DNA of 64,000 bases, from positions 9,802-73,801 of the IMG/VR virus record IMGVR_UViG_3300030117_003378. One strand, given 5' to 3'. The notes beneath the pieces are model-generated. The model worked only from the letters and a program-made list of their open reading frames with translations, was not told where the DNA came from and did no database searches. Positions 20,653-48,801 of the stretch are shown one piece after another. How positions within the stretch are numbered: the first letter of the stretch is position 1; every line of letters starts with the position of its first letter. A program made the translations under genes and the position numbers. The stretch is from a virus.

Positions 20653-22143
20653 CTATCCGCCGAAAGTAACAAATTTTCCTCGACTTGAAGAAGATTTTTT
20701 CTTTTTTTCGCCTTTTCCCCAATTATTCATCGTTGTTGTGCCGGTTGAAAAAGCCGCAAAGTTATCTTGGAAAGAAAATTGGTCAACGGCGTGAGCCAAA
20801 GCCATCGTTGTATCGTTGTGTCGGCCTATGTCTGTAATTTCACCGGCCTTCCACACATGATTTTCTAATTCTTCAAGCACAATTTCCATTTGCTTACGGG
20901 TATTATCGTCTCCGTACGGAAATTGAATTTTATCTTGCTCAAACCATACGCGCAAACGATTTAACAGGCTTTGTTTCAAACCCTTGTTGCTTACTTTGCT
21001 TGGTTTGAAATCTACTGCGCCATTTTTTTGATTGATTAGTGATTCGTACAGTCTTTGGAAGCCAACCTCTTCACAAGCAAACACAGGCATCTTGAAAGCA
21101 TGATTCCAACGAAGAATTTCGTCAACTTGCTTTGACGGTGGGAAATCATTACGACGCCACATATTTACAACGTGCAAAATACCTTCTTCGTCCTGCCTAA
21201 CAACAATCATTACAGAATAGTCCTGTTTTAAACCGTGTGCGGGGTCAAACCCGATAGCATATTTTCCGGGGTGTCTTTTTTCTGTTTCTAGTACAGATTC
21301 CATCTTTAGGTGCTTACGAATTACACCACGGGGATAAACCTGCGCGTCGTCATCGACTACTTTGCACAGGTACTCTTGGATAAACGCCAAATCACCCATA
21401 GCCTGTCGTTGTTCCATGATAAATTTTTCAGAACGGTGTTCCGGCCATAAACATTGCAGTTTTACGCCGTCAGGATTCGATTTCCACTCATCCCAATTCG
21501 GAAAGGCCGACCATGTGCCGGATTTCCATGTATCGTTCTTCAACATTTCTGTATGGTAAATATCTGTCTTTGACATCGGGGTTCCGACAACGTAAAAGTC
21601 GGTTCCGGGCGACAACATTGGTGTTACGACCTTTCGCATCCATTGTTGAACGGTGTCCATTGATGTATCGCCTAAATCAACAAGTACGTCGTCAAAAGCA
21701 ATGCAAGCAGGGTGTTCACCACGAATAGCGGAGCCAACAGAGGTGGCCTTAATCCACGCGCCGTTTGTAAAGCGCAATTCCATCTTTCCGCCCCGCCTTT
21801 CGTCAATCATTTTCCGCAAATCGGGATGCCTTGTTAAATCGGCACGAATTTCTGCTAATCTGTTGGACGCCGTGTCCTTTGAAGCCGAAAATAACCAAAC
21901 TGTATAAGGTTTGTTGCGCCATTTTCGGAACAGGCAGTTGTGGGCGAGGACAATACGAAGGGTCGTTGACTTTGAGTGGTCACGCGGTGCGATAATACAC
22001 ACACGGTGGACTTCAGAGTCACCACGTTCACGGTATAAGTCCATCCATTCGCCTATATGGTTTCCCCATGAGTAACCGAGCCATTCGTAGAAGTGTCTAA
22101 CGTCTTTCCGCGACCTCTGAAAGTGGAACGCGGACATATCCAT
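20653..22143 (-). CDS. terL: Terminase large subunit
   Basis: Walker A variant APRDHSKST, Walker B IAFDDVL, VVGTP, RNase H-like IGFDPA and HNDTTMALA; likely ATG 22143 after GGTGA. Confidence 0.92.
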   Translation of the reverse strand: MDMSAFHFQRSRKDVRHFYEWLGYSWGNHIGEWMDLYRERGDSEVHRVCIIAPRDHSKSTTLRIVLAHNCLFRKWRNKPYTVWLFSASKDTASNRLAEIRADLTRHPDLRKMIDERRGGKMELRFTNGAWIKATSVGSAIRGEHPACIAFDDVLVDLGDTSMDTVQQWMRKVVTPMLSPGTDFYVVGTPMSKTDIYHTEMLKNDTWKSGTWSAFPNWDEWKSNPDGVKLQCLWPEHRSEKFIMEQRQAMGDLAFIQEYLCKVVDDDAQVYPRGVIRKHLKMESVLETEKRHPGKYAIGFDPAHGLKQDYSVMIVVRQDEEGILHVVNMWRRNDFPPSKQVDEILRWNHAFKMPVFACEEVGFQRLYESLINQKNGAVDFKPSKVSNKGLKQSLLNRLRVWFEQDKIQFPYGDDNTRKQMEIVLEELENHVWKAGEITDIGRHNDTTMALAHAVDQFSFQDNFAAFSTGTTTMNNWGKGEKKKKSSSSRGKFVTFGG

Positions 22144-22147
22144 AGTA

Positions 22148-22288
22148 TCACCCGTAAATCCAAGGAACAAGTTTCTTTTGACCGCAAAATGGACAAATGC
22201 GAGTAGACGCGGTCTTGATGCCAAGGTATTTTGTTGCCCAACCACAGGATGTGCATTTTACGGCTTGTCTGTCGTGTGGGTCTTCCAT
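22148..22288 (-). CDS. Small zinc-ribbon protein (46 aa)
   Basis: CTSCG...CPFCG; fills the gap between flanking genes. Confidence 0.6.
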   Translation of the reverse strand: MEDPHDRQAVKCTSCGWATKYLGIKTASTRICPFCGQKKLVPWIYG

Positions 22289-23496
22289 TACTCATCACCG
22301 TTAAGGATTTTCAACGTTCGGACGCCTTGTCTTAGGTCTGTAAACACCTGAATCTCTCTTGTTTCGGGATTGAGAATAGCCAACGGACAAGTTGGTCGGT
22401 CTGAAGCAAACCCAATCATTTCTGCAAATTTGTCAATGACTTTGTAAGAGCCGGGGCGAATAGCCCAACGCTCAACTCCGTGTCGTGTAAATGGGGCGGT
22501 AATCGGAACGTGGTTGTGACACACGACACCGATGTCGAAATCTGACTCTCCATCTTCCCACATTTTCTTTACTACACGCGCGGGGTCAATTTGTGAATTA
22601 CCGCGACGCTTGTGGCGCACAGCAATATGATATGGTTGCTTTCCAAGGAAAACACGCACGTTTAATTCGTCTGTTTGATATAGCATATCGCGGTCTTCCA
22701 TAATATCGGCTAATGGGTCAATACCGGCATACTTTTTTGTCCATTGGTCGTGGTTACCCGCAACAACGGCTAAAATGTCACCATCGAACATATCAATGTA
22801 ATGTTCCATCAACTGCCATTGTTTATCGGGAAGAATAGTGGCTTTTGCGGCGGGGAATGCTTTGTCAGCAGGAAGGAAATTGTCAATAAAGTCCCCACCC
22901 ATAATCGCGTAGCAATTTGGTGTTGCGGCGACCATTTCTGCGTCTTCGCGCATACGCTTCATATCACAGAACGTACTTCCGATGTGTTGGTCGGCGGCAA
23001 ATGCAATACCGATGTATTTTTTACCGTCGAAGTGAATATCGGCCCATCGCTCATTTTCATGGTTGGAAATAGCACGGGTCGTTCTTAATTCGATTTCGTT
23101 CCACAGGTCTTCGGTGGTAATCTTTGGTCCTTTGAGGTGTGTTACAATAAAATCGTTGTGTGCTTTACGAACCAATTTTCCATTTAGTCTCGCTTGATAT
23201 ACACGGTCTTGCCATCCATGAACTGAAATATCGGGTCTTTTGTCGTGGAGAATTCTTGCAAGGTCAGTCCACGACCCCCCTTCCCATTCGTCGGGAATCA
23301 ATTCGTTCGGGTCGTCTTTTTCTATTACAGGCATTTCATCAGGAAATTCTGCTTTGAATCGTTGAATTGCCAAACGCCATGAGTTTGGATTCTTTTCACC
23401 GGTTCTCTCAAAGAGAAGCCGTCCATATTCAGTGTCGTTTCCTGTCCATTCGTGGATGAAGGCCCTGACTACATCGTGTGCGGTCTTTGGTTCCAT
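22288..23496 (-). CDS. Calcineurin-like metallophosphoesterase with N-terminal helical repeats
   Basis: DQH, GDFID, GNHD, RH and CHNH motifs in canonical order. Confidence 0.85.
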   Translation of the reverse strand: MEPKTAHDVVRAFIHEWTGNDTEYGRLLFERTGEKNPNSWRLAIQRFKAEFPDEMPVIEKDDPNELIPDEWEGGSWTDLARILHDKRPDISVHGWQDRVYQARLNGKLVRKAHNDFIVTHLKGPKITTEDLWNEIELRTTRAISNHENERWADIHFDGKKYIGIAFAADQHIGSTFCDMKRMREDAEMVAATPNCYAIMGGDFIDNFLPADKAFPAAKATILPDKQWQLMEHYIDMFDGDILAVVAGNHDQWTKKYAGIDPLADIMEDRDMLYQTDELNVRVFLGKQPYHIAVRHKRRGNSQIDPARVVKKMWEDGESDFDIGVVCHNHVPITAPFTRHGVERWAIRPGSYKVIDKFAEMIGFASDRPTCPLAILNPETREIQVFTDLRQGVRTLKILNGDE

Positions 23497-23584
23497 TGAT
23501 TAATACGAAAAGCGGTTGCCCTTTAAGTGTTGTGGGGCAAATAGACGGAATTGTTATCACTCGCGCTCACATTTTAACATTCCA

Positions 23585-23854
23585 ATGACTGACACAGTAG
23601 AAGGGACTGATTGGGGTTCGCTTTGGGATGCGGTCACGAAGCCGGACCCTTTCACGGTGTGTTTTGACGATTTTTGCTACGATGTTCCGGGGTGGGGTTC
23701 GCCATACTTGCTTGCTTTGGGCATTTTTGAAATCCTGTGGTGGTTATTCGTTTCTGCGTGGTTAGGGAGAAAACTTAAGAGAGTCTTGTTGCGTCGTAAG
23801 GCTCGGAGGGAACGGCGTGAGCAAACAGACGGATTTGATAATGACCCGTATTGA
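23585..23854 (+). CDS. Single-TM membrane protein
   Basis: LLALGIFEILWWLFVSAWLG followed by an Arg-rich tail. Confidence 0.6.
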   Translation: MTDTVEGTDWGSLWDAVTKPDPFTVCFDDFCYDVPGWGSPYLLALGIFEILWWLFVSAWLGRKLKRVLLRRKARRERREQTDGFDNDPY

Positions 23855-24134
23855 CATTATCAATGACAAGGTCGGAGATGTCCGCGAAGACTTGCGCCGC
23901 CATGAGACACGCCTCGTCCGATTGGAAGATATGAATGCAGACCATGAGGCGGCGACAGAACGAATCTCCTCATTGGTTGAAATGGTGGCATTGGATGTAC
24001 GGGAAATTAAGAACGGCCCTGTCTATTCCCTCGACAAGTTTATCACGAAGCGTGTAGCCCAAATCGTGAGCGCATGGACGGGCGGCGTTGGCATCTTCCT
24101 ATTTTTCGTGTTCAAATTTTTTGAAGTAATATAA
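23817..24134 (+). CDS. Coiled-coil protein with a C-terminal membrane anchor
   Basis: Heptad region, then GGVGIFLFFVFKFF. Confidence 0.6.
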   Translation: MSKQTDLIMTRIDIINDKVGDVREDLRRHETRLVRLEDMNADHEAATERISSLVEMVALDVREIKNGPVYSLDKFITKRVAQIVSAWTGGVGIFLFFVFKFFEVI

Positions 24135-24170
24135 TTTTTTTTTTGAAAAAATTTTATTGTGTATTTTGTG
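24110..24170 (+). terminator. T-rich tract, putative archaeal-type terminator and left boundary of the island
   Basis: ATAATTTTTTTTTTGAAAAAATTTTATT directly at the stop of 23817..24134. Confidence 0.55.
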
Positions 24171-24282
24171 CGAAGGTTGCCCCAGTGAATATACAAGATG
24201 GCCGGATTTATGGCAAAATCGCCGTTTTTGGGCTGGAATCGACGATTTTAGAGGTAGTCAAGTATATATGTAACCACTAACA

Positions 24283-24302
24283 TGGGTCACCATGGTGACC
24301 CA
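24283..24302. promoter_or_regulatory. Perfect 20-bp palindrome TGGGTCACCATGGTGACCCA over a start codon
   Basis: Seen directly; about 20 nt downstream of TATATAT at 24263. Confidence 0.6.
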
Positions 24303-25233
24303 CCTGAGCCGGAATCGGAAGGCGATAGCCTCACGCGTAGCACTGTGTGACATGGTCGGATTTGGTGATATCGCCGAATTGAAGTACGAGGCCACAGAAT
24401 CAACTCAAGGCATGGGCCGGTTCAAAGAGTCCAACGGTGGACACCTAACCAAATTCGGCAAAGAGATGGTTCTAAGCATGGAACAGGCCGGATATGCTGG
24501 CAAGGGTATTAGTCGAGGCGGGTTCATCGTCGATGCCAGCGAAGAGGGATGGCAATACGCCGCCGATGTCCTAGGAGGTAACCCATGGCACCGATTAGAC
24601 GACGGGCAAGTTATCCAATACGGTGACATCAGACAAAGCGACAACCCATTGACTAACAACTACTACCACGTTCTACAAGGCGTATTCGATATGGCAGAGG
24701 GTGACCGTGACCTTGAGCGACTTATCGCCCTCCTTCATACAAAGGTCCGATTCAAGACCACATTTGACGAGGCACAAGGTAACTACGACACAGGCCCAAG
24801 CACCCGAACCCTATGGACAAAGGCACGTTCATGGGTTCAATTCATCCGTAAGAAGGAGAAGCAAGCCGGATTCATGCCCATTCTACTCAAGGACGCCGGA
24901 CATTATGACCGCATCAAGCACCTTATCGTCAAGCCGTCCGATGTTATTCACCTATCCGGCAAGCGTGCCGGAGATGTCAAGCAGTCATGGCTTGACGCAG
25001 TAAAGCGACGCCGTAAGAACGCGGACAGTCGCAACAACAAACGTTCAAACCGTAGCCGTTCCCGCCGCAAGACAGCGGGAGAGAAGGCTAAGCGGTCAGC
25101 CCGGAAGAACCGCCGGGGTGCTACGCGGGAAACCCCCACACAGCGTAGCGAGGCAGGACGCGCCTACGAAAGCGTCAGTGCAAAGCACAGCAGGGACATT
25201 GCACCTGTGACCCGCAAGGGATTCACTAAGTAA
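24292..25233 (+). CDS. Hypothetical protein with an Arg/Lys-rich C-terminal tail
   Basis: 313 aa; KRRRKNADSRNNKRSNRSRSRRK...; probably leaderless (TATA about 28 nt upstream). Confidence 0.75.
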   Translation: MVTHLSRNRKAIASRVALCDMVGFGDIAELKYEATESTQGMGRFKESNGGHLTKFGKEMVLSMEQAGYAGKGISRGGFIVDASEEGWQYAADVLGGNPWHRLDDGQVIQYGDIRQSDNPLTNNYYHVLQGVFDMAEGDRDLERLIALLHTKVRFKTTFDEAQGNYDTGPSTRTLWTKARSWVQFIRKKEKQAGFMPILLKDAGHYDRIKHLIVKPSDVIHLSGKRAGDVKQSWLDAVKRRRKNADSRNNKRSNRSRSRRKTAGEKAKRSARKNRRGATRETPTQRSEAGRAYESVSAKHSRDIAPVTRKGFTK

Positions 25234-25236
25234 TGC

Positions 25237-25791
25237 TGGCTCCGCCTTCGGGCGTCGAGCAATTCCCTGACCCCCTAACAGGGGGTGGCCCTCAAAGGGC
25301 GACCCATTAGGCGGAGCCATGGACGGCGTAGCATACCGTTCCATTGTTCTGAACCGGTGGGTTGCAAAGGTACCTATGTCCCGGCTTGTGACCCCAAGCC
25401 CGACAGAGAGCCACCCCCGAATAGGATTCCAAGAAAGGACAGAATATCAGGGCCGAACACGGGCAACTGTGGTGAGGAAGAAAAAGGGGGTGGCTTGGCT
25501 TAACCTTATCAAGTCTCTCATTTCACCTTGACAGGAAACAGTTGCCGTGCGGCGATATAACCAAAAACTGTTTTCATTGTCTTGGTGGTGAGATAAAATA
25601 CTGTGTGTTTATACCGTTAGAGTTTGGTTGCTTTCTCTATCCGACAAATACAGCAACAAATACACACAAGGCGCTATCCGTAGTCTGAGTAGTTAACAGA
25701 TTGCGAACAACGTAAGAGAGAGGTTGTGGGGTGACTCCCCTCTCCGCCTATCCGTAAATCAGCCGTAGCCGGTCACAAGCCCGGTTTAGAA
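25237..25791 (+). ncRNA. Large structured non-coding RNA or UTR element 1 (about 555 nt)
   Basis: 11-bp helices 25237-47/25309-19, 25347-57/25781-91, 25383-93/25771-81 and 25408-18/25486-96, plus many local hairpins with G-U pairs and UUCG/GCAA loops. Confidence 0.7.
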
Positions 25792-25838
25792 ATGATGAGT
25801 GCGGAAACCCGACCGAAGAGGGATAAGGAGTGAGAAAA

Positions 25839-26411
25839 ATGAATGGAACAGAAGCAGTCGTTCTGCTTTTCTTCATGGGCGTATTTGCCGTAACGGCAAA
25901 AATCGCACACGGAGTTAAGAAGGGCGATATTGTGATGGTGAAGCCAACGCTTTCCGCAATCGCGGAAGGTCTTGGTCTAAAGGTGGAAACGGAATATGAT
26001 GCGCCATATTGGTTGCAGATTGTCCACGCGCATGGGTTTGAAAAAGCCTTACGCGGCGTGGTCAATACGCTGAAACATGGTGGTCAACTTGTTGCAGAAG
26101 TAAACGTGTTTGCTTTGTACAACAAGGGAGTTCGTGAGATGAACGCAATACCGTGGAGAATTGGAAAAGAGTTGGCAAAACTCAACACGCAATTTGAGTG
26201 TGGTTGTACCGAAAAACTAGATGATGGTGTTGCGTCATGCACCGAGATATTGGAGATGGCAATTAAGTCGTTGGTTGAAGAACATTATCGGCACAATGCT
26301 TTAGCGCGGTTAAACAAATTCTATCTTGACCGCCTCGCTTCGGATGCTGAAATCGAAGCGGACAATGCCTCTCGATGGGGAACGCACATACCCGTTAAAG
26401 GTATGGATTGA
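25839..26411 (+). CDS. Hypothetical protein with a hydrophobic N-terminus
   Basis: GGAGTGA RBS before ATG 25839; 190 aa. Confidence 0.7.
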   Translation: MNGTEAVVLLFFMGVFAVTAKIAHGVKKGDIVMVKPTLSAIAEGLGLKVETEYDAPYWLQIVHAHGFEKALRGVVNTLKHGGQLVAEVNVFALYNKGVREMNAIPWRIGKELAKLNTQFECGCTEKLDDGVASCTEILEMAIKSLVEEHYRHNALARLNKFYLDRLASDAEIEADNASRWGTHIPVKGMD

Positions 26412-27020
26412 CCGGGCTTAGGCCCCGATTGTGAGTCCGGGGGGGTACATCCCCCTCGGCTCCGACGGGAAAGCCGAAAGGCAGGAGGTGAAAACTGAAA
26501 TGGCACAATTGTTAGTGAGACTTGAGTTCCCAAAAGAAGGATGCGTTTTTGAGGAATACAAAGTAGCATGAACACCACAGAACACGGAGACAGGGTGAGT
26601 CGGTACGTCCGGCCCCTGCTCCAAAGTGTCACTGTGACACTCGGTAAACCACAGTTAGCAAGTTGTAGCGTTAGTAAGCAAACGAGCAAAGGGTTGGAAT
26701 GACAGAGGTGCGCGGAAAGGCATTGCGCCGGACCCCTGCTGTCATAAACAACAAAGAAGCCATGTGATAACGGGACAGTCTGTAAGCATTAAAGAAGCGA
26801 TACCTGCCAAACATGAAGGATTAGACCTCCTATCATTGAGGTACAAAAAATCGCAATACGCAAGCAGATTGACACCCACACGATATGAAGGCGATAGCAC
26901 AAAGCGAACACAATACAACGAACTGACTGACATAACCGCATTAAAGGCATGAGGAGTTCGACGCCAGAGTTACTCATGGCCCACCATTTACCGGTGGGTA
27001 CTCGGATGGCGCAAAATAAC
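26412..27020 (+). ncRNA. Structured non-coding RNA or UTR element 2 (contains a micro-ORF)
   Basis: Hairpins 26433-26462, GCC-GAAA-GGC 26473-82, 26586-26622, 26699-26745, 26776-82/26865-71, 26948-78 and 26980-98. Confidence 0.6.
26500..26571 (+). CDS. 23-aa micropeptide MAQLLVRLEFPKEGCVFEEYKVA
   Basis: Perfect GGAGGTGA RBS at 26484-26491, the same as for the two downstream genes. Confidence 0.5.
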   Translation: MAQLLVRLEFPKEGCVFEEYKVA

Positions 27021-27033
27021 GGAGGTGACATTT

Positions 27034-30000
27034 ATGACAAACAACATGAATGTAACTAACGGTCTACGGGTCGTCTTCGTTGTCATGGCACTTGCTTTCG
27101 TTGGCCTCGCGGCTAGCGGAGCAGTTGTCACAGACAGCGCAGACACCCACGGGGTTGTAACAAACCCCACACACATGGGAGTCGGTGGAAACACTGACCA
27201 CATGGAGGTGCTTGAGTTGCACCATCGTCCGCGAAACAGCGCCCAACGTCGTCGTTGGCGTCTTGCCAAAACATCATGGCAACGTCGACGCGCTCGTTGG
27301 CTCTCGCTGAATAGCCTTCAGGCTTTGCGAGACGCATGGGACAAACTTGCCCCAAGAACACAGTTTAGAATTAAGCACGGCTTCGCCAAAGCAAAATTCG
27401 TGGGTGTTATTGGGCTGATGGCTATGATGACTTACTACGTCATCGGACTGCCATTGGCCTTCCTTGTGGGCAAAACCAACCGACGGTGGTACAAGCCCGG
27501 TGTCTATGTGGCGGCGGATTACCTCGTTGCAAAACTCAAATCCGATAAAGAGGATAGAGAACTTGTAGCGCAGGAAAAACGTCAACTGCATCGGGACATG
27601 GATGAGGTTCAGGACGAGTTGAACATTGCGACTGAAGAACACGAAAAAGCGGTTGACCATCACCGTGAACTAGAATTGTTGCATAAGGACGACCCTGTAC
27701 TGTTTGGTGAGGACGAACTGAAGCAAGCAATTGCTGATGTAGAAGACACCAAGGAATGGGTCAACGAAGCCACTGAGTCATTGCAGTCTGTTCTCGACAG
27801 AGTGGAACAATTCTACTCTGTCAAGATTGATATGCGGCTTGGTAAGTACGGTGAGAATGTAGCCGAGAAATACGGCAGTAGGTTCGCTGAAGTTGACACA
27901 AGTCTGTTGGAACTTAACCCTGACAACTGGACAGTTGCACCTGAGCATGAAGCAAAGGTTCTGAACATTAGCGACGAACCTAAAGATGGCTTGCGACAAA
28001 TGATGCGAACCAATCTACGGGAAGTGTCAAAGGAGTTTGGTGTGCAAACACCTGTGTTCCGCAACGGTCCGCGTTCGTACACCATCAAGGGCGACGGTTC
28101 AGTGCATGACTATGTCAGAGACGCTGACAGGTCAACCGATACGGTAGCACCCGATACCCGTGCCTATGGCTTTGAGACAAATTTCCCTGTCTCAAACCTA
28201 ACTGCGATGATGCGTCACTTGGACATCTACTACACGGCGCAACAACGGTTCCATTGGCCCGGACACTCAAAGCCCGGACAACCGTCAATGATTGTTGATG
28301 TAGAGTGTGGTTGGCACCTCCACATATCGGTTGCCGCTGGACTTGAGGGCGCGAAGGACAACATCAAAAGAATTCGCAAACTTGGTACTGGCAACGCAAC
28401 ACACGATGTGTGGGTTGACTGGCAAGCCGCATTTACCATTAACTATCATGGTAACATTGAGCAGTTCAATGGGATGATGGGCAGAAGCCGCGACCACAAC
28501 AACAGTAACAACACTGGCTATGCGAAGCCTCAGTTTAGTCGTATCAACCATTTGCGTAAGGCAAAGGCACTGTACGAACTTGCGAAGCCTCGCGTGACAG
28601 AAACGGCGCAGGAAGCAAAAGACCGCTTCACTTCGCTCGCTGTTGAGTGGCGAAAGTTTGACGGACCCCATGCGGTTGGACACGAAACACTGGAACAACT
28701 GGAAAAGTGGGACGGCGTGTCTGCCGTTCCTACGCGAGTTGCTAACCGGTTGCTTAAGAATGCTCGTAAGAAGTATCACGAAGCATTTTGGGCTATGGTC
28801 GACGAAGGTCGTAGCGACTACTGGATGGTTAACTTCGGTGGTTATACGGAACACGGCACAGTAGAGGTCAGACACATGGGCGGATTGAACAACTGGTTCA
28901 CTTCCTGCCTATGGATGATTACCATACAAAAGTTGATGATTGATTCAATGGATGGCAAAGAGTTCTTCATTGCATCACAACACAACAATGGTAGCCAAAA
29001 GGACCCACGCCGCGATGCGTCACAGGCACACGCCTTTGCACAATGGTTGTGTAACGGCTACGAGTGGCCGAAGCCGGTACAGGTTTTCTTGGATGTCTAC
29101 GGCATCACGGAATTCGCAAGTCTGAATGCGGACGCTGTCAACAAGAGTCACCTTGAAGGACAAAGTGTCTTTGTCGAGTCAATCTTGGCATTCAAGGAAT
29201 TTGACGATTGGCAACCATCTGCTGATTTCGTGGACATGAGCGACAAGCGATTAGCCAAGTGGCGACAAAAGTCGTATGCCATGATGGGTGAGACATACAT
29301 CGAACCCGGCAGTACCAACCCGTACAACGCAAGTCTGTTCGGTGTCGGCCTAATCGGTGCTATTGTCGCAGGTACGTCACCAGTGCTAATTGCGCTCGCG
29401 TGCGTAGCGTGTGGCATCGGCGGTTGGATTAACATGAACGTCGATGACGATGGCAAGCCGACAAAGCCAAGTCGTGGTGAGTGGAAGGGGATTCTCAGAA
29501 TCCTCGCCGAACTGTCCTCGCGTGGCTCAGAAGCCTGTGGTGTTGCTTACAGCAGAGGTGACGGTAAGGTACACGGTGCATGGGAAGTAGAACCCGAGTC
29601 CAAGAAGAAGGACAAGTGGGGCTACTACTCATCAGGTATCAACGTACCCAAGATGGTCGGCAGTCTGATTATGAAGAAGATTGCCAAGGGCCTCGGTCGA
29701 ATGGGCTTCCGCATGAAGTGGGTTATGACGCACACCCGTCATAGCACAGGCGGTGCTAACAACCGACGCAATGCACATCCAATCAAGGTTGGACCGAACG
29801 ATAACCAAAATGCCGGTATAGTGCTAACGCACAACGGCATGATTTCGTTCAACGCAGAGCGCAAGGTCGAGGACACGCTACCCGAAGAATACTTCGTATC
29901 GCGTAGCAAGGACATTCGTGGTCTTGAGTTAGATACACGTTGCATCGTGTACTGCTTGGACTACTATGGTTCGACCAACGACGGCATCGACAAGATGGCG

Positions 30001-30732
30001 GCACTGTGTGACTTCGACGGTAGAGCGTCCATGCGTCTCGTATGGGTCGACAAGTCAGAATCGCGTGACGGGTTCCCCGAGCGCGTTCACTTGTGGGCTA
30101 ACTGCGACGACCTATGGGTTGCACAGACAGTCAAGGGTAACTGGGTGTATGCTTCAACGCAAAACATCTTGAAGCGTACCTTCGGTAACGTGCTTATAGA
30201 CAGCACTATCCGACACCTAAACCTTGACGCGCACTATGTCATTGATTGGCAACATGGCCTAATCAACCTTGGCAAGTGTGGCAACAAGCACATCGTAGAG
30301 CCTGTCAAGCGTGACTCAAACGCATGGAAGACTGGTCGTAGCACAACTAACAAGCCCGCGACTGTCAACTTAGATGCTTTGGTGTCACCCAAGACAGTAC
30401 CGCCTGTCAAGAACATCATGGATGACGGCTTCTACGAATGCCGCAACTGTGAAAACGGACACTGGTTGACGTTTGACAACAACTGGAATATGTGCCAAAT
30501 CTGCGGTCGTTCAGCAGACGATGTGGTTGACTCTTGCAGTAGCCCATCGTGTGAGACTGACACATTGTGGGACACCTTGCCCGAAGAGGTCAAGACAACT
30601 GTTCCACCTGTTGGTAGTCCTGACTTGAAGGGATTTGTCGACGAGGTAAATGCCAAGGCAAAGGTTGACGCTAACCTGCGACCGGTCAAGGGCGCACTCA
30701 TGGCGCACGACGAAGACACGCGACAGGCCTGA
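27034..30732 (+). CDS. Membrane-associated COOH-NH2 ligase (amidoligase type 2) / class II glutamine amidotransferase polyprotein with a C-terminal Zn ribbon
   Basis: Ligase motifs GDGS, GFETNFP, CGWHLHIS, YWMVNF and HGTVEVRH; Ntn motifs CGIGG, RGSEACG, HTRHST, NAHP and HNGMI; three hydrophobic segments; GGAGGTGA RBS before ATG 27034. Confidence 0.8.
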   Translation: MTNNMNVTNGLRVVFVVMALAFVGLAASGAVVTDSADTHGVVTNPTHMGVGGNTDHMEVLELHHRPRNSAQRRRWRLAKTSWQRRRARWLSLNSLQALRDAWDKLAPRTQFRIKHGFAKAKFVGVIGLMAMMTYYVIGLPLAFLVGKTNRRWYKPGVYVAADYLVAKLKSDKEDRELVAQEKRQLHRDMDEVQDELNIATEEHEKAVDHHRELELLHKDDPVLFGEDELKQAIADVEDTKEWVNEATESLQSVLDRVEQFYSVKIDMRLGKYGENVAEKYGSRFAEVDTSLLELNPDNWTVAPEHEAKVLNISDEPKDGLRQMMRTNLREVSKEFGVQTPVFRNGPRSYTIKGDGSVHDYVRDADRSTDTVAPDTRAYGFETNFPVSNLTAMMRHLDIYYTAQQRFHWPGHSKPGQPSMIVDVECGWHLHISVAAGLEGAKDNIKRIRKLGTGNATHDVWVDWQAAFTINYHGNIEQFNGMMGRSRDHNNSNNTGYAKPQFSRINHLRKAKALYELAKPRVTETAQEAKDRFTSLAVEWRKFDGPHAVGHETLEQLEKWDGVSAVPTRVANRLLKNARKKYHEAFWAMVDEGRSDYWMVNFGGYTEHGTVEVRHMGGLNNWFTSCLWMITIQKLMIDSMDGKEFFIASQHNNGSQKDPRRDASQAHAFAQWLCNGYEWPKPVQVFLDVYGITEFASLNADAVNKSHLEGQSVFVESILAFKEFDDWQPSADFVDMSDKRLAKWRQKSYAMMGETYIEPGSTNPYNASLFGVGLIGAIVAGTSPVLIALACVACGIGGWINMNVDDDGKPTKPSRGEWKGILRILAELSSRGSEACGVAYSRGDGKVHGAWEVEPESKKKDKWGYYSSGINVPKMVGSLIMKKIAKGLGRMGFRMKWVMTHTRHSTGGANNRRNAHPIKVGPNDNQNAGIVLTHNGMISFNAERKVEDTLPEEYFVSRSKDIRGLELDTRCIVYCLDYYGSTNDGIDKMAALCDFDGRASMRLVWVDKSESRDGFPERVHLWANCDDLWVAQTVKGNWVYASTQNILKRTFGNVLIDSTIRHLNLDAHYVIDWQHGLINLGKCGNKHIVEPVKRDSNAWKTGRSTTNKPATVNLDALVSPKTVPPVKNIMDDGFYECRNCENGHWLTFDNNWNMCQICGRSADDVVDSCSSPSCETDTLWDTLPEEVKTTVPPVGSPDLKGFVDEVNAKAKVDANLRPVKGALMAHDEDTRQA

Positions 30733-30748
30733 GCCTGACCCAACGATT

Positions 30749-30774
30749 GAGGGGGGGCAGTAATGCCCCCTCTC
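30749..30774 (+). other. GNRA-capped hairpin upstream of the GNAT RBS
   Basis: GAGGGGGGGCA-GTAA-TGCCCCCTCTC. Confidence 0.65.
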
Positions 30775-30796
30775 TCTCTAAGGGAGGTGAAATAAT

Positions 30797-31291
30797 ATGG
30801 AGAAAACAATCAAGAAGATTGAAGCCCATTTGGCTCTTTGGATTGAGATGGTTGCGGTATTGTGGATTGATGGCAATGCCCACTATCTACTTTTCAATGA
30901 ATACCAAATATCCATGTTCCGAAGTGGACGAACACTACACTTTGGTTTGGTCGTAAACGGTGAAACGGTTGCCAAGTCTCAAATGTCATGGATGCCCGGT
31001 TGTTCAGCAATTTGGTTTGCACATGGCCTTTGGGTACATGAAGACTACCGGTCAAAGGGGAAGCACTCAGGTTGCGGTGCATTATACATTATTCGCCAAT
31101 GGCAGAGAAGACTCTTGTTGGATATGGAAGCGAGCCGTGTTTACATCACGGTGCCAGCAGATAATCCAGCAGGGTTGAGAGCGGCTGAAAAGGCGGGTTA
31201 TGTAAGAATGCCCGACCCACACGATGTGGTTAGCGAGCGACACGGATTCGGACGAGCAATCATGTTCGTTTGGGACCCAATCGGCGCTTGA
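30797..31291 (+). CDS. GNAT-family acetyltransferase
   Basis: LWVHEDYRSKG (motif A) and NPAGLRAAEKAGY (motif B); GGAGGTGA RBS. Confidence 0.8.
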   Translation: MEKTIKKIEAHLALWIEMVAVLWIDGNAHYLLFNEYQISMFRSGRTLHFGLVVNGETVAKSQMSWMPGCSAIWFAHGLWVHEDYRSKGKHSGCGALYIIRQWQRRLLLDMEASRVYITVPADNPAGLRAAEKAGYVRMPDPHDVVSERHGFGRAIMFVWDPIGA

Positions 31292-31314
31292 ATACGTCGC
31301 AAGATAACACACCG

Positions 31315-31476
31315 GTTGGTCAAGGGGGCTTAGGTTCCCTTGGCTGACTTAGACACAGAGTCGGTTCCGGGGTTGACCCCGCCGACTCATCTTTCACACA
31401 CCACCTTCGGGTGAGGGTGCAAACGCACAGTAAAAAAGCCCGCTTACAGGCGGGAGTAAATCACGACCACTGGTCG
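31315..31476 (+). ncRNA. Structured 3' element 3 (series of hairpins)
   Basis: 14-bp stem 31315-28/31335-48, 31358-65/31381-88, CACC-TTCG-GGTG 31402-13, 31439-43/31450-54. Confidence 0.55.
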
Positions 31477-31529
31477 GTTAACGCATGAGCATTAGCCTTG
31501 GGTGCATTGACCCCCCAAAAACGCGGTAT

Positions 31530-31628
31530 AAAATCGTGCTAAAATCTAACAAAAAGAAATGTTCAAAAAAGATACAAATAAAATAACAAATAAAATGTAA
31601 CAAATCACAAATCAAAATTCACAAATCA
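31530..31628 (-). terminator. A-rich (+) / T-rich (-) low-complexity tract, right boundary of the island
   Basis: Repeated ACAAAT/AAAAT units; T-rich on the strand of the convergent gene 31619..31948. Confidence 0.5.
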
Positions 31629-31948
31629 GACTCCGCGACGATTCCTACCAAATCCAAAATGTCATCCTCCTCAAATCCAACCTCGCCCGAAAAACGAACG
31701 AGTTGAGCGGTGAATCGACGCTTGCCATCGACGCGGCCACGGGCGGTGTCCACGAAGGCATCGAATGATGAACGGTCAGTCGCTACGCGCAGGTCACGCA
31801 TGACGCGAAGGCCGACGGGCTTCAAGTCCCGATTGAGTAGTATGGCGCGTACTCGGTCGTCGCCGATGGTCTGAAGTCCACCACGATGTGCGCGCGCGTG
31901 CGCGATGAGGCGGGGCATCTCGGTCAGGTCTGCGGGTATGTCGTCCAT
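31619..31948 (-). CDS. Hypothetical protein (solitary minus-strand gene)
   Basis: 109 aa ORF with TATA-like TTCATAAG about 25 nt upstream and a T-rich tract downstream. Confidence 0.55.
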   Translation of the reverse strand: MDDIPADLTEMPRLIAHARAHRGGLQTIGDDRVRAILLNRDLKPVGLRVMRDLRVATDRSSFDAFVDTARGRVDGKRRFTAQLVRFSGEVGFEEDDILDLVGIVAESDL

Positions 31949-31991
31949 GAACCACCCTAGCGACGTAACCTTATGAACCTATCGCTTGGCA

Positions 31992-32058
31992 CAAGGTTTA
32001 TAGGCTCCCCGCCCTTTGAACATGGGTGCGGCGTGGGTATTCGCAAGGTTTATAGGCT
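31992..32058 (+). promoter_or_regulatory. Tandem promoter-like repeats CAAGGTTTATAGGCT
   Basis: Exact copies at 31992-32006 and 32044-32058; third near-copy at 32499-32512. Confidence 0.7.
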
Positions 32059-32566
32059 TCTACCCCGTGTGACATGGGCTTGGGGCCTAGTTTACTTTCT
32101 ACACCTAGTGTATTTGTTAAATCTGACCCGTTCATTGATAATCCAGCCCCTCCTTTGACTGAACAGGCTCGCAGTCATGCGTTTTGGGGATTTTTTTGGC
32201 ATTTTCGCTCCGAATCTAGCCTATTTGGCTGATATTCGTTTATATTCCCCAATTCGTGGTACTGCGAGGCCGAAAATTGAGGAGGGTGTATGATGAGGTA
32301 GGGTTTCATACCACTTTTCCACCCGCACTAAGTGTAATTTGTACACCACCCCTTCAAGTAACACCACCTGTCCCCGAACACACTTACTTTACTTTCTACA
32401 CCGCTCCTACGCGTAAGTACGTTCGCGTGTACGCGTATAGCATGACGAATCGTATGAATCTCATACTGTTAAATATCAGGTCCTAATTCTAACAATGCCA
32501 AGGTTTATAGGCATCCATCGGTAGCATCAATTTGTGGGAGGGGCCGACCCCCCACAGGATGATAAC

Positions 32567-32848
32567 ATGGAACCCAAGCCAGCAACCCGAATTGCAGGTC
32601 GCCACAAGCAAGCCTTGTTGGCCGCAATCTCGGAAATGAAGCCTGAACTGCACTACACGGCAGGAGATATGACATACCACGCGGCGAAGCACAGTAAGAC
32701 TTCCGCCCGATACCTGAAGCCAAAGAATGCGTCCCGTATTCTATGTGCGCTTCAGCGAGAAGGTGCGCCGATTCAAATGCACCCACGCGGCGTCGAAGAT
32801 GAGAATGGGAAGGTCACGACCCAACGCACATTTACGGTGATAGCATGA
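32567..32848 (+). CDS. Putative winged-helix DNA-binding protein
   Basis: Helical pattern followed by a beta hairpin; promoter at 32499. Confidence 0.5.
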   Translation: MEPKPATRIAGRHKQALLAAISEMKPELHYTAGDMTYHAAKHSKTSARYLKPKNASRILCALQREGAPIQMHPRGVEDENGKVTTQRTFTVIA

Positions 32849-33264
32849 AGATTTGGAACGAAGCGTGTATTTGGTTCATGCGGACTAATGGATATTGCAG
32901 TAAGTGTGGTTGTGTTCACAAGAGCATGGACGAAGATTTGTGGAAGGTGGTTGAATGAGTTACCGGACAAAGTACAGACTGATTCAGCGATTCAAGGGGG
33001 CATTCCAATTCCTCATGTTCTGTCTTCACGCAACCCTTATACCGTTCCTTTTGGTGGGAGTATTGACGGGGGTGCTGAAGTGATGGAAACCGTTCAATGT
33101 TGCCTCCGCCGAATCCCTCGGACTCACATTTTCTATGGTCGCTCGATTCAGACCGGAATTGACAAGTCGTGGTGCTTCGATTGCGCCGCCCCATGCGGTT
33201 ATCAAAACGGTGACCATTGGGAAGAAGACGGTTATGCTGATGAAAATGCACGGTGGGTGATTGA

Positions 33265-33660
33265 ATGACCCGACCACAATATCACAATCACCCCGATGGG
33301 TGGACTGCGGTTTTGACTCCGCATTTCATCGAAACGTGGCGCAAGCGGACCGAAGGTCGGACTTCACTTTCGATGATGGAGTGGGTGTCGAAGGTCGGAC
33401 GCAAGTTTGACCAAATCGGCGACGATGTGCCGAGCGGCGGAGAGATTCTCAATTCCGCATTCGGTGGCCCCGTTGTCGCCTTCGGATATTTCAACCGCAG
33501 ATTCAACAAGAGGCGAGGCCGATGGGAATTGGAGATGATTGACGTTGCCCCACCAAACCGATTCAACACGAAGGGTCGCTCAAGTCATGGCAATTCTCAC
33601 GAAGACACCGTGTTCATGGACGTAAATGACAACGTTTATAGGGTAACAAAGGAGGAATAA
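33265..33660 (+). CDS. Hypothetical early protein
   Basis: 131 aa; ATGA-coupled to the upstream small ORF. Confidence 0.65.
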   Translation: MTRPQYHNHPDGWTAVLTPHFIETWRKRTEGRTSLSMMEWVSKVGRKFDQIGDDVPSGGEILNSAFGGPVVAFGYFNRRFNKRRGRWELEMIDVAPPNRFNTKGRSSHGNSHEDTVFMDVNDNVYRVTKEE

Positions 33661-33663
33661 ATT

Positions 33664-34167
33664 ATGACAAAGCACTTACAGACTGACGAGGGCTATGGGC
33701 GATACAACAAGATTGATATGACCCTCCACGTTTGTCGGACAGGAGCCAAGGAGCAATTCTACACCTTGTATCAAGAGGGTGTGTGTTGGAGCAAGTACGG
33801 CGCGACATACTACTGCAATTTCATTCAGAATCTCTCTCATAGCAGGGCCGATGCTGAAGAGAAGGCCCATGCCTATGCCGAGAAGCGCAACCTGCGCGAA
33901 ATCTGCCACCACCTCGACATTGAGATTCACGATACACCACGACCAATCTATCTTCGACACGAAGCCTTTGGCGTCGAGATGAAGATGAATAAGAAGCGCA
34001 CCGTTTGGTTCGGCAATATCGGCTCGGAATTTTGGGACGAGTGGAGAGAAAACAAGGCCGAAATCAAGGCGGCGGGATATTGGGTAATGAAGGGTGACGG
34101 CGGTTCATGGCTACTCTTCAAGCGCATTGAGCAAGACGAGAGGCAATACGCCGACGAGGAGGAATGA
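33664..34167 (+). CDS. Hypothetical early protein
   Basis: 167 aa directly after a promoter cassette. Confidence 0.75.
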   Translation: MTKHLQTDEGYGRYNKIDMTLHVCRTGAKEQFYTLYQEGVCWSKYGATYYCNFIQNLSHSRADAEEKAHAYAEKRNLREICHHLDIEIHDTPRPIYLRHEAFGVEMKMNKKRTVWFGNIGSEFWDEWRENKAEIKAAGYWVMKGDGGSWLLFKRIEQDERQYADEEE

Positions 34168-34475
34168 AAATGATTGACACAGAAAAGTACGAAGACATAA
34201 CACCTGAGCGGTGGACAGTAGATGAGGAAGACCCATACCGTGTGGTAGATGTACAGGACTGCACCATAGCAAGGACTGACTTTATCGACATCGAGGAAGA
34301 AAGAGAGTGGCAGTTAGCCAACGCACAACTGATAGCAGACGCCCCACTACTACTCGCAGAAGTCCAGCGGTTGCGCGAGATAGAGCGTGAGTGGAAGCAG
34401 ATGTGGTCTAAGTTAGAGGACTACCCTGAAATTTGTGTTGAATTAATCTACTTTATGGAGGGGATGATTGAATGA
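34164..34475 (+). CDS. Hypothetical early protein
   Basis: ANAQLIADAPLLL motif common in small phage proteins; ATGA overlap. Confidence 0.7.
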   Translation: MKMIDTEKYEDITPERWTVDEEDPYRVVDVQDCTIARTDFIDIEEEREWQLANAQLIADAPLLLAEVQRLREIEREWKQMWSKLEDYPEICVELIYFMEGMIE

Positions 34476-34710
34476 AGAATTGTTACCATTGTCACGGAGA
34501 AATGAAGGCAGAATCTATACTATACAATTTGAAGCGACTGATTCGTGAGCAAAATGCGGTGAATGGCGACTACGACGATTTGTATTTCGGCATCAAGGAT
34601 TTGATTCAGGCAATCGAGGAGAGGATTTGATGGATTGTGAGATTTGCGGTCACCTTCTCGATGACGACGGAAAGTGCGGTTGTATGGAGGCACTTTGGGG
34701 CTGATTTCAC

Positions 34711-34783
34711 GGTTCCCGTTCTCCCGTGCGTCGACGGCCCTTCGCGGGCGACAGCGACCACGGGGGCGGGACCACATTTTTTT
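34711..34783 (+). terminator. GC-rich long hairpin followed by T7
   Basis: GGTTCCCGTTCTCCCGTG pairs with CACGGGGGCGGGACC; inner GCCC/GGGC stem; TTTTTTT at 34777-83. Confidence 0.55.
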
Positions 34784-35222
34784 CGGCCATCTGTGAACAA
34801 TAAGGTTTATAGGGTAACCGGATATATGTTACCCACTAATTTTAGGGCGCGGATAGGTTTATAGTCTAACAATGTAAGGGATATTTACAGGAGAGGAAAG
34901 CATGGTTGAAAGATGTTGGTTTGATTCGCAGGGATTTGGGACTTGGGCTTGTCGCGTATGTGGGCGTCAAGTCATTCAAGACCCGATGGGTTACACTTAC
35001 TCATGTGAGGTGGGAGAATGAGAATGAAGAAGATACAAAACGCACTTTACGACATTCACGAATACGCAGACATTCTGCTCAAGAATAACAAGAGTCACAT
35101 TGCCGTTAATGAATTGGCTGAATTGATTTTGGAGAGAGTCGATTTCATTCGTTTGCACTTAGGGATTGATGAATAACCTTTATAGGGTAACAAGAATAGG
35201 ATAATTTAGAGGAGAGGAAAAC

Positions 35223-36185
35223 ATGGCAAAGACAGGAAGAGCAGAAGCCGCGCTGAAGCGCGACCAAATGAGAAACATGGTGGTTGAAACCATCATCAAG
35301 CAAATGGAGAGTGGAAGCACCGATTGGTTGCGACCGTGGACAAAGTCGGGTGGTTCAGAATTGCCCGTCAGCAACGTCGGTCGCTCATACCGAGGCATCA
35401 ATGTATGGTGGCTTTGGGCCAACGCATCTCAAAACGGATGGGGCAACGAATGGGGGACTTTCGCTTCATGGAAGAAGGCCGGAGAAGCACACGCTAACTC
35501 AATCGGAAGTGACGAGTATTTCGGTGTTCAGAAGGGCATGAAGTCTACACCGGTTTTCTTCTACAAGATGCTCAAGATTAAGGACAAGGACAACGAAGAC
35601 GAGGAGAAGATGATTCCCCTGCTCAAGTGGTTCTATGTGTTCAACCGAGCGCAGACCAACCTGCCGGACAAGGTATATGTTGATGACGAAACTCACGAAG
35701 TCAGCGAGGAGGCCGCAGAATTGGAGGCGTTGGCACTGTACGACAAGCACAATGTGGATTTGCGGTACGGTGGAGGTCGAGCATTCTATCGGGTGTCGAC
35801 AGACCACATTCAAATGCCGAATCGAGAGCATTTCCGTGACTCGACAGGGTTCACGGCAACACTACTACACGAATTGACTCATTGGACAGGTCACCCGTCA
35901 CGACTCAATCGGAAGTTGGAAAACTCATTCGGAGGCAACGAGTACGCCTTTGAGGAATTGATTGCAGAGATGGGTGCGGCAATGGTTTGCGCCGAGGTCG
36001 GCGTGGACAATGACCACCTGATGATTGACAACCACGCGGCATACGTCACATCGTGGCTCAAGGGACTCAAGACGGACGGTGGCGCACAAGCCCTATGGCG
36101 AGCCGCCGCCCATGCACAGAAGGCCGCAGATTGGATTCTCGGCACAGGCTACGACGGAAAGGAGGACGAGAAGAATGAATCATAA
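35223..36185 (+). CDS. ardC: ArdC-like antirestriction protein (ssDNA-binding domain plus zincin-like domain)
   Basis: WLRPW, YRGIN, W..F..W, VFN..Q, AFY...D.I.MP, HELTHWTGH..RL.R and YAFEELIAE. Confidence 0.9.
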   Translation: MAKTGRAEAALKRDQMRNMVVETIIKQMESGSTDWLRPWTKSGGSELPVSNVGRSYRGINVWWLWANASQNGWGNEWGTFASWKKAGEAHANSIGSDEYFGVQKGMKSTPVFFYKMLKIKDKDNEDEEKMIPLLKWFYVFNRAQTNLPDKVYVDDETHEVSEEAAELEALALYDKHNVDLRYGGGRAFYRVSTDHIQMPNREHFRDSTGFTATLLHELTHWTGHPSRLNRKLENSFGGNEYAFEELIAEMGAAMVCAEVGVDNDHLMIDNHAAYVTSWLKGLKTDGGAQALWRAAAHAQKAADWILGTGYDGKEDEKNES

Positions 36186-36808
36186 TTGTTGGTCTTGTAA
36201 TCAAGACATTGTATGCGAGTGCGAAGTCGGTAAGGAGGGACAAGAAGAATGACGAGTGGGACGATGGATTTGACACCGACGCCGCGAGCAGTAGCGATTA
36301 TATGCCTTGAGATTCTCAAGAATGCCCACAAGATTGATACACCGCACGACATTCAGTGGGCCGAAGAGCAGATTCTCAAGATGATTATTGAGGATTGGCC
36401 GGATGACAAGTATTCAAAGGCAAAGCGCGAGCAATGGGGGGAATTGTAAATGAATGAAACAGACAGAGAAGTAATAGAAGAGATGTTGGACAGTATAGCA
36501 CATCTCGCAATCATGCAATACGGCACGTTTGCGAGAAACATGGTTGATAAACTACAAATACACATAAACGACCACGTTCATGCCGGAGATTGGATGGATG
36601 GATTCGTGACCGGCCTTGAATGGGTGCTTGAAGAATTAGACGGCGTGAGGGTGGTCTGAATGCCGCGCAAGGGTCAAAGAGCAGGTAACCGATGGCGTTG
36701 GAATCAGCGTCGCTCAGTGCGCGAATTGAAGGCATTGCGAATCCCGCACAAGCCACCACGAATGGGTGCGGCACATACCTTTATAGGGTCACAAGAGGAG
36801 GAGTAATT

Positions 36809-42004: not shown

Positions 42005-42053
42005 ATATAAACCTTTATAGTGTAACAATGGTAACAATTTTTGAGGAGAGAGC

Positions 42054-48758: not shown

Positions 48759-48801
48759 GGTTTATAGGGTCATCGCTTTCCCTTCATTTGGAGGAAGCAA
48801 T

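Follow-up and report, generated by a model that had tools for sequence, protein, structure and literature searches.

What some 1.5 kb of folded, non-coding DNA is doing between the genes of a single-strand viral gene block is the question raised by positions 24130-31630 of the stretch analysed here. This stretch, the window, is 64,000 nucleotides (nt) long and corresponds to bases 9802-73801 of the 73,801-bp virus record IMGVR_UViG_3300030117_003378, and the block carries five open reading frames (ORFs) on its + strand (Table 1). An original prediction, made from the sequence alone, had described the block as a combination of large structured RNAs with an amide-ligation and acetylation enzyme set, and the features that it described are in place. 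Its figure of about 1.3 kb of non-coding DNA was low, as the gaps at 25234-25838, 26412-27033 (minus the micropeptide ORF) and 31292-31618 total approximately 1.5 kb. These gaps are taken to be non-coding because the insertions and deletions between relatives within them (1, 3, 4, 5, 12 and 25 nt) are not, as a set, multiples of three. What sets the block apart is its RNA layout and not its enzymes, and a twister ribozyme inside RNA 1 and a cassette-swapping architecture are additions to the earlier reading. The favoured, if still tentative, account is that the block is a cassette operon whose message is cut by the twister, with conserved RNA modules acting in cis in end protection, stability and translation and serving as junctions for gene exchange.

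Relatives of the block were found in one IMG/VR contig (L001 and its duplicates) and five marine metagenome contigs (L036-L040), and in a distant lineage (L035, L041 and L042) the two halves of the large protein have identities of 34% and 22%. These sequences come from Tara Oceans and other marine assemblies, and the block was also compared with contigs of four marine DNA runs, each from a different study (X2, X6, X11 and X14). On the question of whether gene order and non-coding segments are conserved together, the segments are linked to the amidoligase-GATase (glutamine amidotransferase) gene in the close relatives and in L035. The syntenic features of L035, at 22-34% protein identity, are the hairpin element, the micropeptide gene, a folded spacer of approximately 850 nt, the large ORF and the 3' motif with its hairpin.

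RNA 1 ends in a predicted type-P1 twister ribozyme, the sole significant match in a permissive Rfam scan and the only one in the whole genome. The cmscan alignment spans the entire model (positions 1-68) and RNAalifold recovers the fold. The stems are in type-P1 order, with P1 pairing UCCG with CGGA followed by the UAA loop, P2 pairing AUCA with UGAU and P4 pairing CCG with CGG around the loop GUCACAAGCC, after which an A-rich junction and GAGUG follow. The score of 46.8 bits is below the Rfam gathering cut-off of 67.2 because the optional P3 is missing. P3 is absent in approximately 22% of twisters, and the crystallised Osa-1-4 ribozyme is a minimal form of this kind (PMC6154101). Pseudoknot T2 is intact, with the GC of L2 pairing with the GC of AAGCC. 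Pseudoknot T1 reads CAC with GUG, not CCC with GGG, due to a compensated A25775-U25800 pair that replaces the consensus C-G; these two changes (C to A in L4 and G to U in L1) are the only departures from the twister consensus. In the exhaustive mutagenesis of Osa-1-4, T1 pairs were swapped for other pairs with activity kept (PMC5113685). The L4 variant CGGTCACAAGCCCG is found at 123 distinct sites in viral contigs, 61 of which have GAGTG no more than 40 nt downstream and none of which has GAGGG alone. Many of these sites directly precede a ribosome-binding site (RBS), as in the window, where the RBS of ORF2 begins 22 nt after the twister. The twister is identical in L001, L036, L037 and L038, though the downstream gene differs in each lineage, and its cut is predicted to fall between U25755 and A25756.

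Upstream, two 11-nt segments of RNA 1 are used in the minimum-energy fold to pair with the ribozyme core and could hold the twister off by alternative pairing. This complement is kept in L036 and, with one mismatch, in L001; it does not appear to be essential because it is absent in L037. A second twister suggested on the - strand at 25392 was rejected, as its P4 cannot pair and the site is the complement of the + strand core. A C/D-box small RNA hint at 25788-25827 (E 0.08-0.4) was likewise rejected, having no D box and overlapping the twister. Apart from the twister, Rfam 15 gave no match at E <= 1 over 23400-32600 or at E <= 10 over 25200-27100, and the RNA segments of the relatives gave no Rfam match. 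One contig of run X14 keeps the 5' third of the twister and has the remainder (25763-25828) replaced by 73 other letters, which may represent a diverged twister.

The signals for transcription and translation were also surveyed. The claim that the block has one TATA box at its 5' end and none of the repeated promoters of this virus holds: the site at 24263 is the sole one, and the promoter motif AAGGTTTATAGGC has 14 matches (0.9 expected by chance), none of them before 31993. The ORF1 variant of L037 has the same layout as the window, with TATATA 25 nt upstream of its ATG. The three perfect RBSs that had been reported are also present; each copy of GGAGGTGA stands 5-8 nt before an ATG, and the motif occurs nowhere else in gene context in the 64 kb. 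The confinement of strong RBSs to the block and the absence of the repeated promoter fit a polycistronic unit. A different arrangement, in which several transcription units start at internal promoters such as TTTATA at 25608 and have long folded leaders, the twister trimming a leader of approximately 115 nt from the ORF2 message, is judged unlikely. It would account for the left edge of the conserved twister module, which at 25599 precedes TTTATA by 9 nt and is a break in three independent lineages, and for the promoter-like AAGGTTATACC that precedes approximately 1.2 kb without an ORF in L035. However, the 14 repeated promoters are flanked by AAGG and GGC and TTTATA is not; it is located inside a predicted UGUGUGU/ACACACA stem that requires upstream RNA, and the later cistrons have strong RBSs, typical of internal positions.

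The outer limits of the block require some revision. The T tract and the A-rich tract proposed as its bounds are both real. The first is likely an archaeal terminator of the upstream 105-aa gene. The second is better read as the terminator of the convergent 109-aa gene than as part of a + strand RNA, a likely assignment because its T tracts run on the - strand behind that gene. No significant direct repeats are internal to the block.

The folding of the block was scanned in 200-nt windows with 20 dinucleotide shuffles each, over 24201-31401. The mean z-score on the + strand of the block is -2.0 (n=37) vs -0.25 on the right arm (n=77; Mann-Whitney p 2e-8) and -0.5 on the sense strand of the left arm, and the block's own - strand has a mean of -1.07 (paired p 8e-4). 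Windows wholly within the ORFs of the block have a mean z of -1.6 (p 4e-5 vs the right arm). The strongest folding is located at 26940-27620 (z -8.25 on the + strand and -1.65 on the - strand), where the RBS and AUG of the large ORF are paired in a hairpin and the variable N-terminal coding segment forms a chain of long stems. All three gaps fold better than their dinucleotide shuffles, as had been predicted: RNA 1 with a z of -3.5 (+) and -3.3 (-), RNA 2 with -4.9 (+) and -1.4 (-), and RNA 3 with -4.1 (+) and -2.7 (-).

The substitution patterns in these segments also bear on structure. The 5' domain of RNA 1 is 87-99% identical to its relatives vs 74-85% at the third codon positions of ORF1, and a diverged counterpart with the same hairpin order lies downstream of the L037 ORF1. 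Its 11-bp stem, formed by GAGCCACCCCC and GGGGGUGGCUU, closes an arm that varies freely among relatives, and a 25-nt hairpin is inserted cleanly into the RNA 1 of relatives. Eight one-sided changes in RNA 1 retain pairing through G-U and do so for + strand pairing only. In the first hairpin of RNA 3, one A-U pair is exchanged for G-C and one U-G pair for C-G. The motif CAAGAUAACACAC with its hairpin directly follows the stop of the large ORF in L001 and in the distant L035, whose hairpin has the same base and a different top.

The intercistronic hairpin element of about 80 nt exhibits the same kind of change. Three variants of it exist: that of the window, that of L035, and a second copy found in L036, L037 and L039. 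Each folds as one long hairpin in which the bulges (A, U, and U or C) recur at 3-bp intervals. Its lower part does not vary (CCCG-A-UUG-U-GAG / CUC-CGA-CGGG), and the upper stem changes on both sides in a compensatory manner. Identity to L001, L036 and L037 is 94-98%, the loci of L036, L037 and L039 each carry two to three copies, and L035 also has the element. With compensatory or G-U-preserving changes in the element, RNA 1, RNA 2 and RNA 3, the prediction of structured RNAs gains support, and the substitution evidence is supportive without being statistical proof because independent events are few. Searches for further copies of the element gave little: a strict pattern matched only two contigs already known, loose patterns in viral and genome collections gave chance matches only (none with the flanking CC...GGG), and a covariance model (R1) built on it yielded no additional copy across 385 kb of magrovirus relatives. 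Four known folds were considered for the element and the related hairpin modules and rejected: the hammerhead (no core, by eye and by script search), a hepatitis delta virus-like fold (P3 and P1 would not fit between P2 and P4), the kink-turn (tandem G-A pairs lacking) and the bulge-helix-bulge (bulges not staggered on opposite strands).

The most conserved of these RNAs is RNA 2. Its core (26573-26945, 373 nt) is 97.3-97.9% identical to L001, L036 and L037 vs 88-91% at the third codon positions of the adjacent large ORF, making it four to five times less diverged, in agreement with the predicted conservation of the non-coding segments. Over 26576-26761 (186 nt), L036 and L037 differ at two positions only, which form a C-G to U-A compensatory pair in the second RNA 2 hairpin module. 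This near-invariance over 373 nt is the strongest argument for something beyond punctuation. It is possible, though less than likely, that the RNA 2 core, and perhaps the 5' domain of RNA 1, represent a new large functional RNA class of archaeal viruses that is more than a spacer, released or organised by the twister and the bulged hairpins and bound by ORF1, with the whole block selected for folding; such an RNA could act as a sensor and free the sequestered start of the amidoligase gene, or be a ribonucleoprotein or decoy acting on the host. A further proposal, that RNAs 1, 2 and 3 are free-standing trans-acting RNAs (scaffolds bound by ORF1, decoys for host or defence factors, or a new large RNA class) released by the twister and host nucleases, is distinctly improbable. 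It draws on the same near-invariance amid drift, which exceeds the usual needs of a leader or spacer, on the basic tail of ORF1 that is conserved down to 26% identity, on the 3' end that a twister cut would define for RNA 1, and on the lack of an Rfam match, by which these RNAs would be a new family. Set against it, the search for a second ribozyme or processing site found none for the 5' end of RNA 1 or for the two ends of RNA 2, the distant relative has spacers that cannot be aligned, and the family is confined to one small virus clade.

Among the relatives, conserved segments alternate with replaced ones. ORF1 is 54-88% identical or replaced by a relative of 26% identity. In L001, L036 and L037, one to three different small ORFs stand in place of ORF2. 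The slot after the large ORF is empty (L001), occupied by other sequence, or, in the window genome only, occupied by the GNAT (GCN5-related N-acetyltransferase)-like gene. The large ORF itself has two unrelated in-frame alleles at 27188-27495, of 309 nt (window, L036 and L037) and 141 nt (L001, L039 and contigs of three runs). Joints in the runs were located at 24184/25599, 25752, 25762/25829, 25815/26420, 26479/26574, 27187/27496 and 30681-30814/31300, with 140, 219 or 566 other letters in between (219 or 566 in the last slot). Altogether the breakpoints fall at 24184, 25599, 25752, 25762/25829, 26409-26420, 26479, 27187/27496, 30681-30814 and 31300, of which 25599 recurs in L037 and runs X6, X11 and X14. 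In L036, the hairpin element and an RNA 2-type hairpin module interchange before the same RBS. The conserved modules are therefore regarded as fixed junctions, because they persist while the ORFs between them diverge or are exchanged.

That exchange breakpoints coincide with module edges, that RNA 3 and its flanking genes share one low level of divergence, and that the L036 modules swap before one RBS could also be explained at the DNA level, with the non-coding blocks as homology arms for cassette exchange or as recently homogenised DNA and the folding incidental. This explanation is given little credence, since the excess folding is strand-specific and G-U-dependent, the one-sided changes keep + strand pairing only, a ribozyme is an RNA-level device, and the RNA 2 core is four to five times less diverged than the synonymous sites immediately downstream in the same block.

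The evidence instead favours cis-acting elements at the RNA level, because a ribozyme precedes an RBS, the folding is strand-specific, hairpins follow the stops, a start is sequestered and the strong RBSs are limited to the block. From these features we infer a single transcript with self-cleavage and with stabilising and translational roles for its RNA modules. In the favoured cassette-operon reading, transcription would proceed rightward from the TATATA promoter with leaderless ORF1 first, giving an RNA strongly folded over its full length. The twister cut would then separate the ORF1 message, with a folded tail of approximately 520 nt ending in a 2',3'-cyclic phosphate, from a downstream message that bears a 5'-OH, starts with the compact ribozyme fold and has the ORF2 RBS 22 nt further on. 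Stable hairpins after each stop, the approximately 450-nt RNA 2 and the hairpin hiding the RBS and AUG of the large ORF would serve as punctuation that guards ends, sets relative stability and gates translation for each cistron. The conserved modules would in addition be the fixed junctions of a gene-swapping locus, whose constant payload would be the micropeptide of 21-23 aa and the membrane-anchored Amidoligase_2/class-II GATase fusion.

Several points weigh against this reading. An invariant spacer of 450 nt far exceeds the known needs of end protection or translational gating, and the excess folding inside ORFs is not explained by punctuation. The - strand of RNA 1 folds about as well as the + strand. 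RNA 3 is 95-99% identical among relatives, which is no higher than the third positions of the 109-aa gene (95.5-96.4%), so that its conservation alone shows nothing. The relatives are few and close, and covariation amounts to a handful of events plus the distant L035 with its unalignable long spacers. The complement to the twister core is missing in L037, and TTTATA at the left edge of the conserved twister module may be an internal promoter. One transcript, its cleavage and the resulting RNA ends are likewise predictions from the sequence.

The payload is dominated by the 1232-aa fusion protein, for which only four database homologues were found (79-93% identity). GATase_6 matches all seven homologues of this protein that were examined. 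The L035 homologue scores 38.3 bits for GATase_6 (Pfam cut-off 27) and 26.9 for Amidoligase_2 (cut-off 22). The window protein has no match to the Amidoligase_2 profile (PF12224), and its residues 64-644 align to the L035 homologue with an E-value of 5e-20. In searches of PDB and NCBIfam, the GATase part matched GlmS and PurF. The AlphaFold model of the amidoligase domain had a pLDDT (predicted local distance difference test) of 41, too poor for a fold check. An invariant C793-G-I-G-G follows a hydrophobic stretch of 25 residues. In class-II amidotransferases, the cysteine of a CGI[VG]G motif is the N-terminal nucleophile. Because the internal CGIGG matches this motif, Cys793 would reasonably be expected to require autoproteolytic release. 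The fusion is probably an ATP-dependent enzyme that amidates carboxylates or ligates peptides using glutamine-derived ammonia. At the RNA level, the 309-nt allele of its variable segment consists of long stems; the encoded segment has an additional hydrophobic helix and an Arg-rich stretch, and the allele would alter the membrane topology predicted for the protein.

The micropeptide gene lies upstream of the amidoligase-GATase gene in every relative, L035 included. The C-terminal pattern W-[IV]-[FY]-x-E-[FY]-x-E-A of its product persists out to L035, as do the reading frame and the start and stop codons, at approximately 65% DNA identity among relatives, and a 6-nt indel stays in frame. Amidoligase_2 systems have been proposed to produce modified metabolites or peptide tags (Iyer et al. 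2009, PMC3268129, as cited from PMC11706807). This position and conserved end make the acidic, aromatic micropeptide a conceivable substrate or precursor of the fusion enzyme, similar to a ribosomally synthesised and post-translationally modified peptide or a peptide tag, with the spacer setting the ratio of peptide to enzyme. The proposal is compatible with the other readings and is considered very improbable, its basis being purely gene neighbourhood, and it leaves RNA 1, RNA 3 and the twister unexplained.

The notion of an enzyme set was not sustained. The 164-aa product of the last gene has matches to Acetyltransf_1, _3 and _8 in six to seven of seven homologues, all below cut-off, and its PDB matches have E-values of 0.18-0.97; homologues of approximately 70% identity are found on other short marine contigs. 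The gene is absent from all relatives found, and depth over 30907-31157 is zero in all four marine DNA runs. It appears to be optional cargo. What stands of the earlier interpretation is the conserved, folded, gene-linked RNA and its fit to a polycistronic unit.

ORF1 showed no match to Pfam, PHROG or NCBIfam, atlas and exhaustive HMMER searches were uninformative, and it has only two matches among 1.84 billion representative proteins. Its basic tail is the part kept in the most divergent variants. Another cassette ORF, of 148 aa, is located at 6728-7174 of L037 between two copies of the hairpin element and features a C-terminal CxxC...CxxC zinc-ribbon-like motif.

Compared with known systems, the twister belongs to an established class, to which it adds a member from an unusual group of hosts. 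It shares with RF03160 and Osa-1-4 the P1, P2 and P4 stems, the UAA loop, the GC...AAGCC T2 and a three-pair T1 within 55 nt without P3, and an RBS follows it closely, as is the case for many twisters in viral contigs. It differs in belonging to a predicted archaeal virus, in scoring below the gathering cut-off and in lying within a conserved folded segment of approximately 600 nt that includes a 22-nt complement to the core. Reviews describe twisters in bacteria, eukaryotes and near phage genes (PMC6765202), and a search of the available literature found no paper pairing 'twister ribozyme' with 'archaeal virus'. Ribozyme-associated phage clusters (twister/hammerhead, RAGATH) also carry variable small genes between conserved structured RNAs on one strand, and polycistronic processing has been suspected for them (PMC6765202). 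Here, in contrast, there is one recognisable ribozyme, the other junctions are bulged hairpins and RNAs of 240-450 nt without a known family, and the folding excess runs through the ORFs. GOLLD and ROOL are comparable as hundreds of nt of conserved, strongly folded non-coding RNA in virus genomes, whereas the window RNAs have no Rfam match, are located between operon cistrons and not beside tRNAs, and have a very narrow distribution.

The enzyme pair is not new. Amidoligase plus GATase in a Poseidoniales virus has been published (PMC11706807), and the same domains (PF12224 and PF13522) are virus-encoded in phages and in Poseidoniales viruses, including Vyasavirus brisbanense (PMC11706807, which cites Iyer et al. 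2009 for such enzymes in viruses). The window differs in the fusion of both domains into 1232 aa with hydrophobic segments and an internal CGIGG cysteine, and in the conserved micropeptide gene and long folded spacer that precede it; the fusion, the membrane segments and the micropeptide are new. The combination of one twister, bulged-hairpin junctions, conserved RNAs of 240-450 nt, folding in ORFs and a fused membrane amidoligase-GATase with a micropeptide is new as a variant. A textbook-quality minimal twister at a fixed junction of a gene-exchange locus bears on the biological role of twisters, and the block offers a concrete, testable case of ribozymes and stable hairpins as viral operon punctuation beyond bacteria. 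It also contributes approximately 1 kb of non-coding RNA conserved above synonymous sites and without a known family, in a virus group that ranks among the most abundant in the surface ocean, and the conserved micropeptide adjoining a membrane amidoligase-amidotransferase is a further point of interest. If the folding excess over 7 kb is adaptive, it would represent an undescribed selection on messenger structure in archaeal viruses, for stability or for escape from RNA-targeting defence.

Table 1. Features of the gene block and its borders, in window coordinates
Feature	Position	Strand	Description
T-rich tract	24117-24160	+	After stop of 105-aa gene; read from sequence; direct repeat D1; left boundary
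Gene block	24130-31630	+	One-strand block of 7.3 kb with five ORFs
TATATA box	24263-24268	+	23 nt upstream of ORF1 ATG (24292), leaderless layout; sole TATA-like site at 5' end of block
ORF1	24292-25233	+	313 aa, orphan; Arg/Ser/Asn-rich basic C-terminal tail
RNA 1 5' domain	25234-25598	+	UUCG-loop hairpin right after ORF1 stop, C/G-run hairpins, variable arm closed by 11-bp stem
Two 11-nt segments	25347-25357 and 25383-25393	+	Complementary to 22 nt of twister core (25771-25791)
RNA 1 3' module	25599-25750	+	Upstream of twister; left edge is a recurrent recombination breakpoint; 94-98% identity to relatives
Type-P1 twister ribozyme (predicted)	25751-25805	+	Minimal (P1, P2, P4; no P3); RF03160, 46.8 bits, E 4.6e-8
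ORF2 RBS	25827-25833	+	GGAGTGA
ORF2	25839-26411	+	190 aa, hydrophobic N-terminus; swappable cassette
Intercistronic hairpin element	26412-26494	+	About 26 bp, three single-base bulges 3 bp apart on 5' strand; GAAA-loop mini-hairpin; GGAGGTGA
Micropeptide ORF	26500-26571	+	23 aa; 21-23 aa across relatives
RNA 2 core and tail	26572-27020	+	About 450 nt non-coding; related hairpin modules 26587-26623 and 26702-26744
Start-site hairpin	27021-27061	+	Sequesters RBS GGAGGTGA and AUG of large ORF
Large ORF (fusion protein)	27034-30732	+	1232 aa; N-terminal anchor, variable segment, coiled coil, Amidoligase_2-like, hydrophobic segment, CGIGG GATase, Cys-rich tail
G/C-run hairpin	30749-30774	+	Heads last cassette slot, with GGAGGTGA at 30783-30790
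GNAT-like gene	30797-31291	+	164 aa; accessory, window-specific among relatives found
RNA 3	31292-31540	+	Motif CAAGAUAACACAC, 16-bp hairpin 31314-31349, five further hairpins
A-rich tract on + (T tracts on -)	31541-31618	-	Downstream of convergent 109-aa gene; right boundary
Convergent gene	31619-31948	-	109 aa

From its gene content, the window virus is taken to be a magrovirus-like tailed virus of marine Poseidoniales archaea. The record is rated complete by CheckV at 73.8 kb. The left arm encodes, on the - strand, a tail protein, portal, terminase and an Mre11-like exonuclease, and the right arm encodes, on the + strand, a thermosome-type chaperonin, a family-B DNA polymerase (PolB) and a tRNA-Ala. 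Magroviruses of Marine Group II (Poseidoniales) are recognised by tailed morphogenesis genes, archaeal replication genes and a thermosome, which is carried by groups A and D (PMC5434244). The terminase, portal, tail protein, PolB and thermosome found here agree with this signature, and archaeal TATA-type promoters and marine relatives are also present.

The AAGGTTTATAGGC-like promoters of the right arm, fourteen copies, span 31993-48769. ACATGGG is located approximately 19-24 nt downstream of those at 31997 and 32049 and of the block TATA at 24263, which suggests leaderless starts. In L035, positions 3726-4926 comprise the promoter-like AAGGTTATACC and then approximately 1.2 kb without an ORF of at least 70 aa; 3950-4930 folds strongly (z -4.1), and the stretch could be an exceptionally long leader or else a non-coding RNA. 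The convergent 109-aa gene, for which no family match was obtained, always closes the block and is 98-99% identical in close relatives and 58% in L035. Just left of the block, 23516-24134 encodes two small proteins of 112 and 105 aa that are 96-100% identical in close relatives. The former consists of a hydrophobic helix followed by a basic tail and the latter of a coiled coil with a C-terminal hydrophobic helix; both resemble holins or membrane anchors, with only a weak hint from PHROG. The cumulative GC skew turns near 22-23 kb, and the region 22000-23500, also just left of the block, combines the skew minimum with a divergent gene switch and is a possible replication origin.

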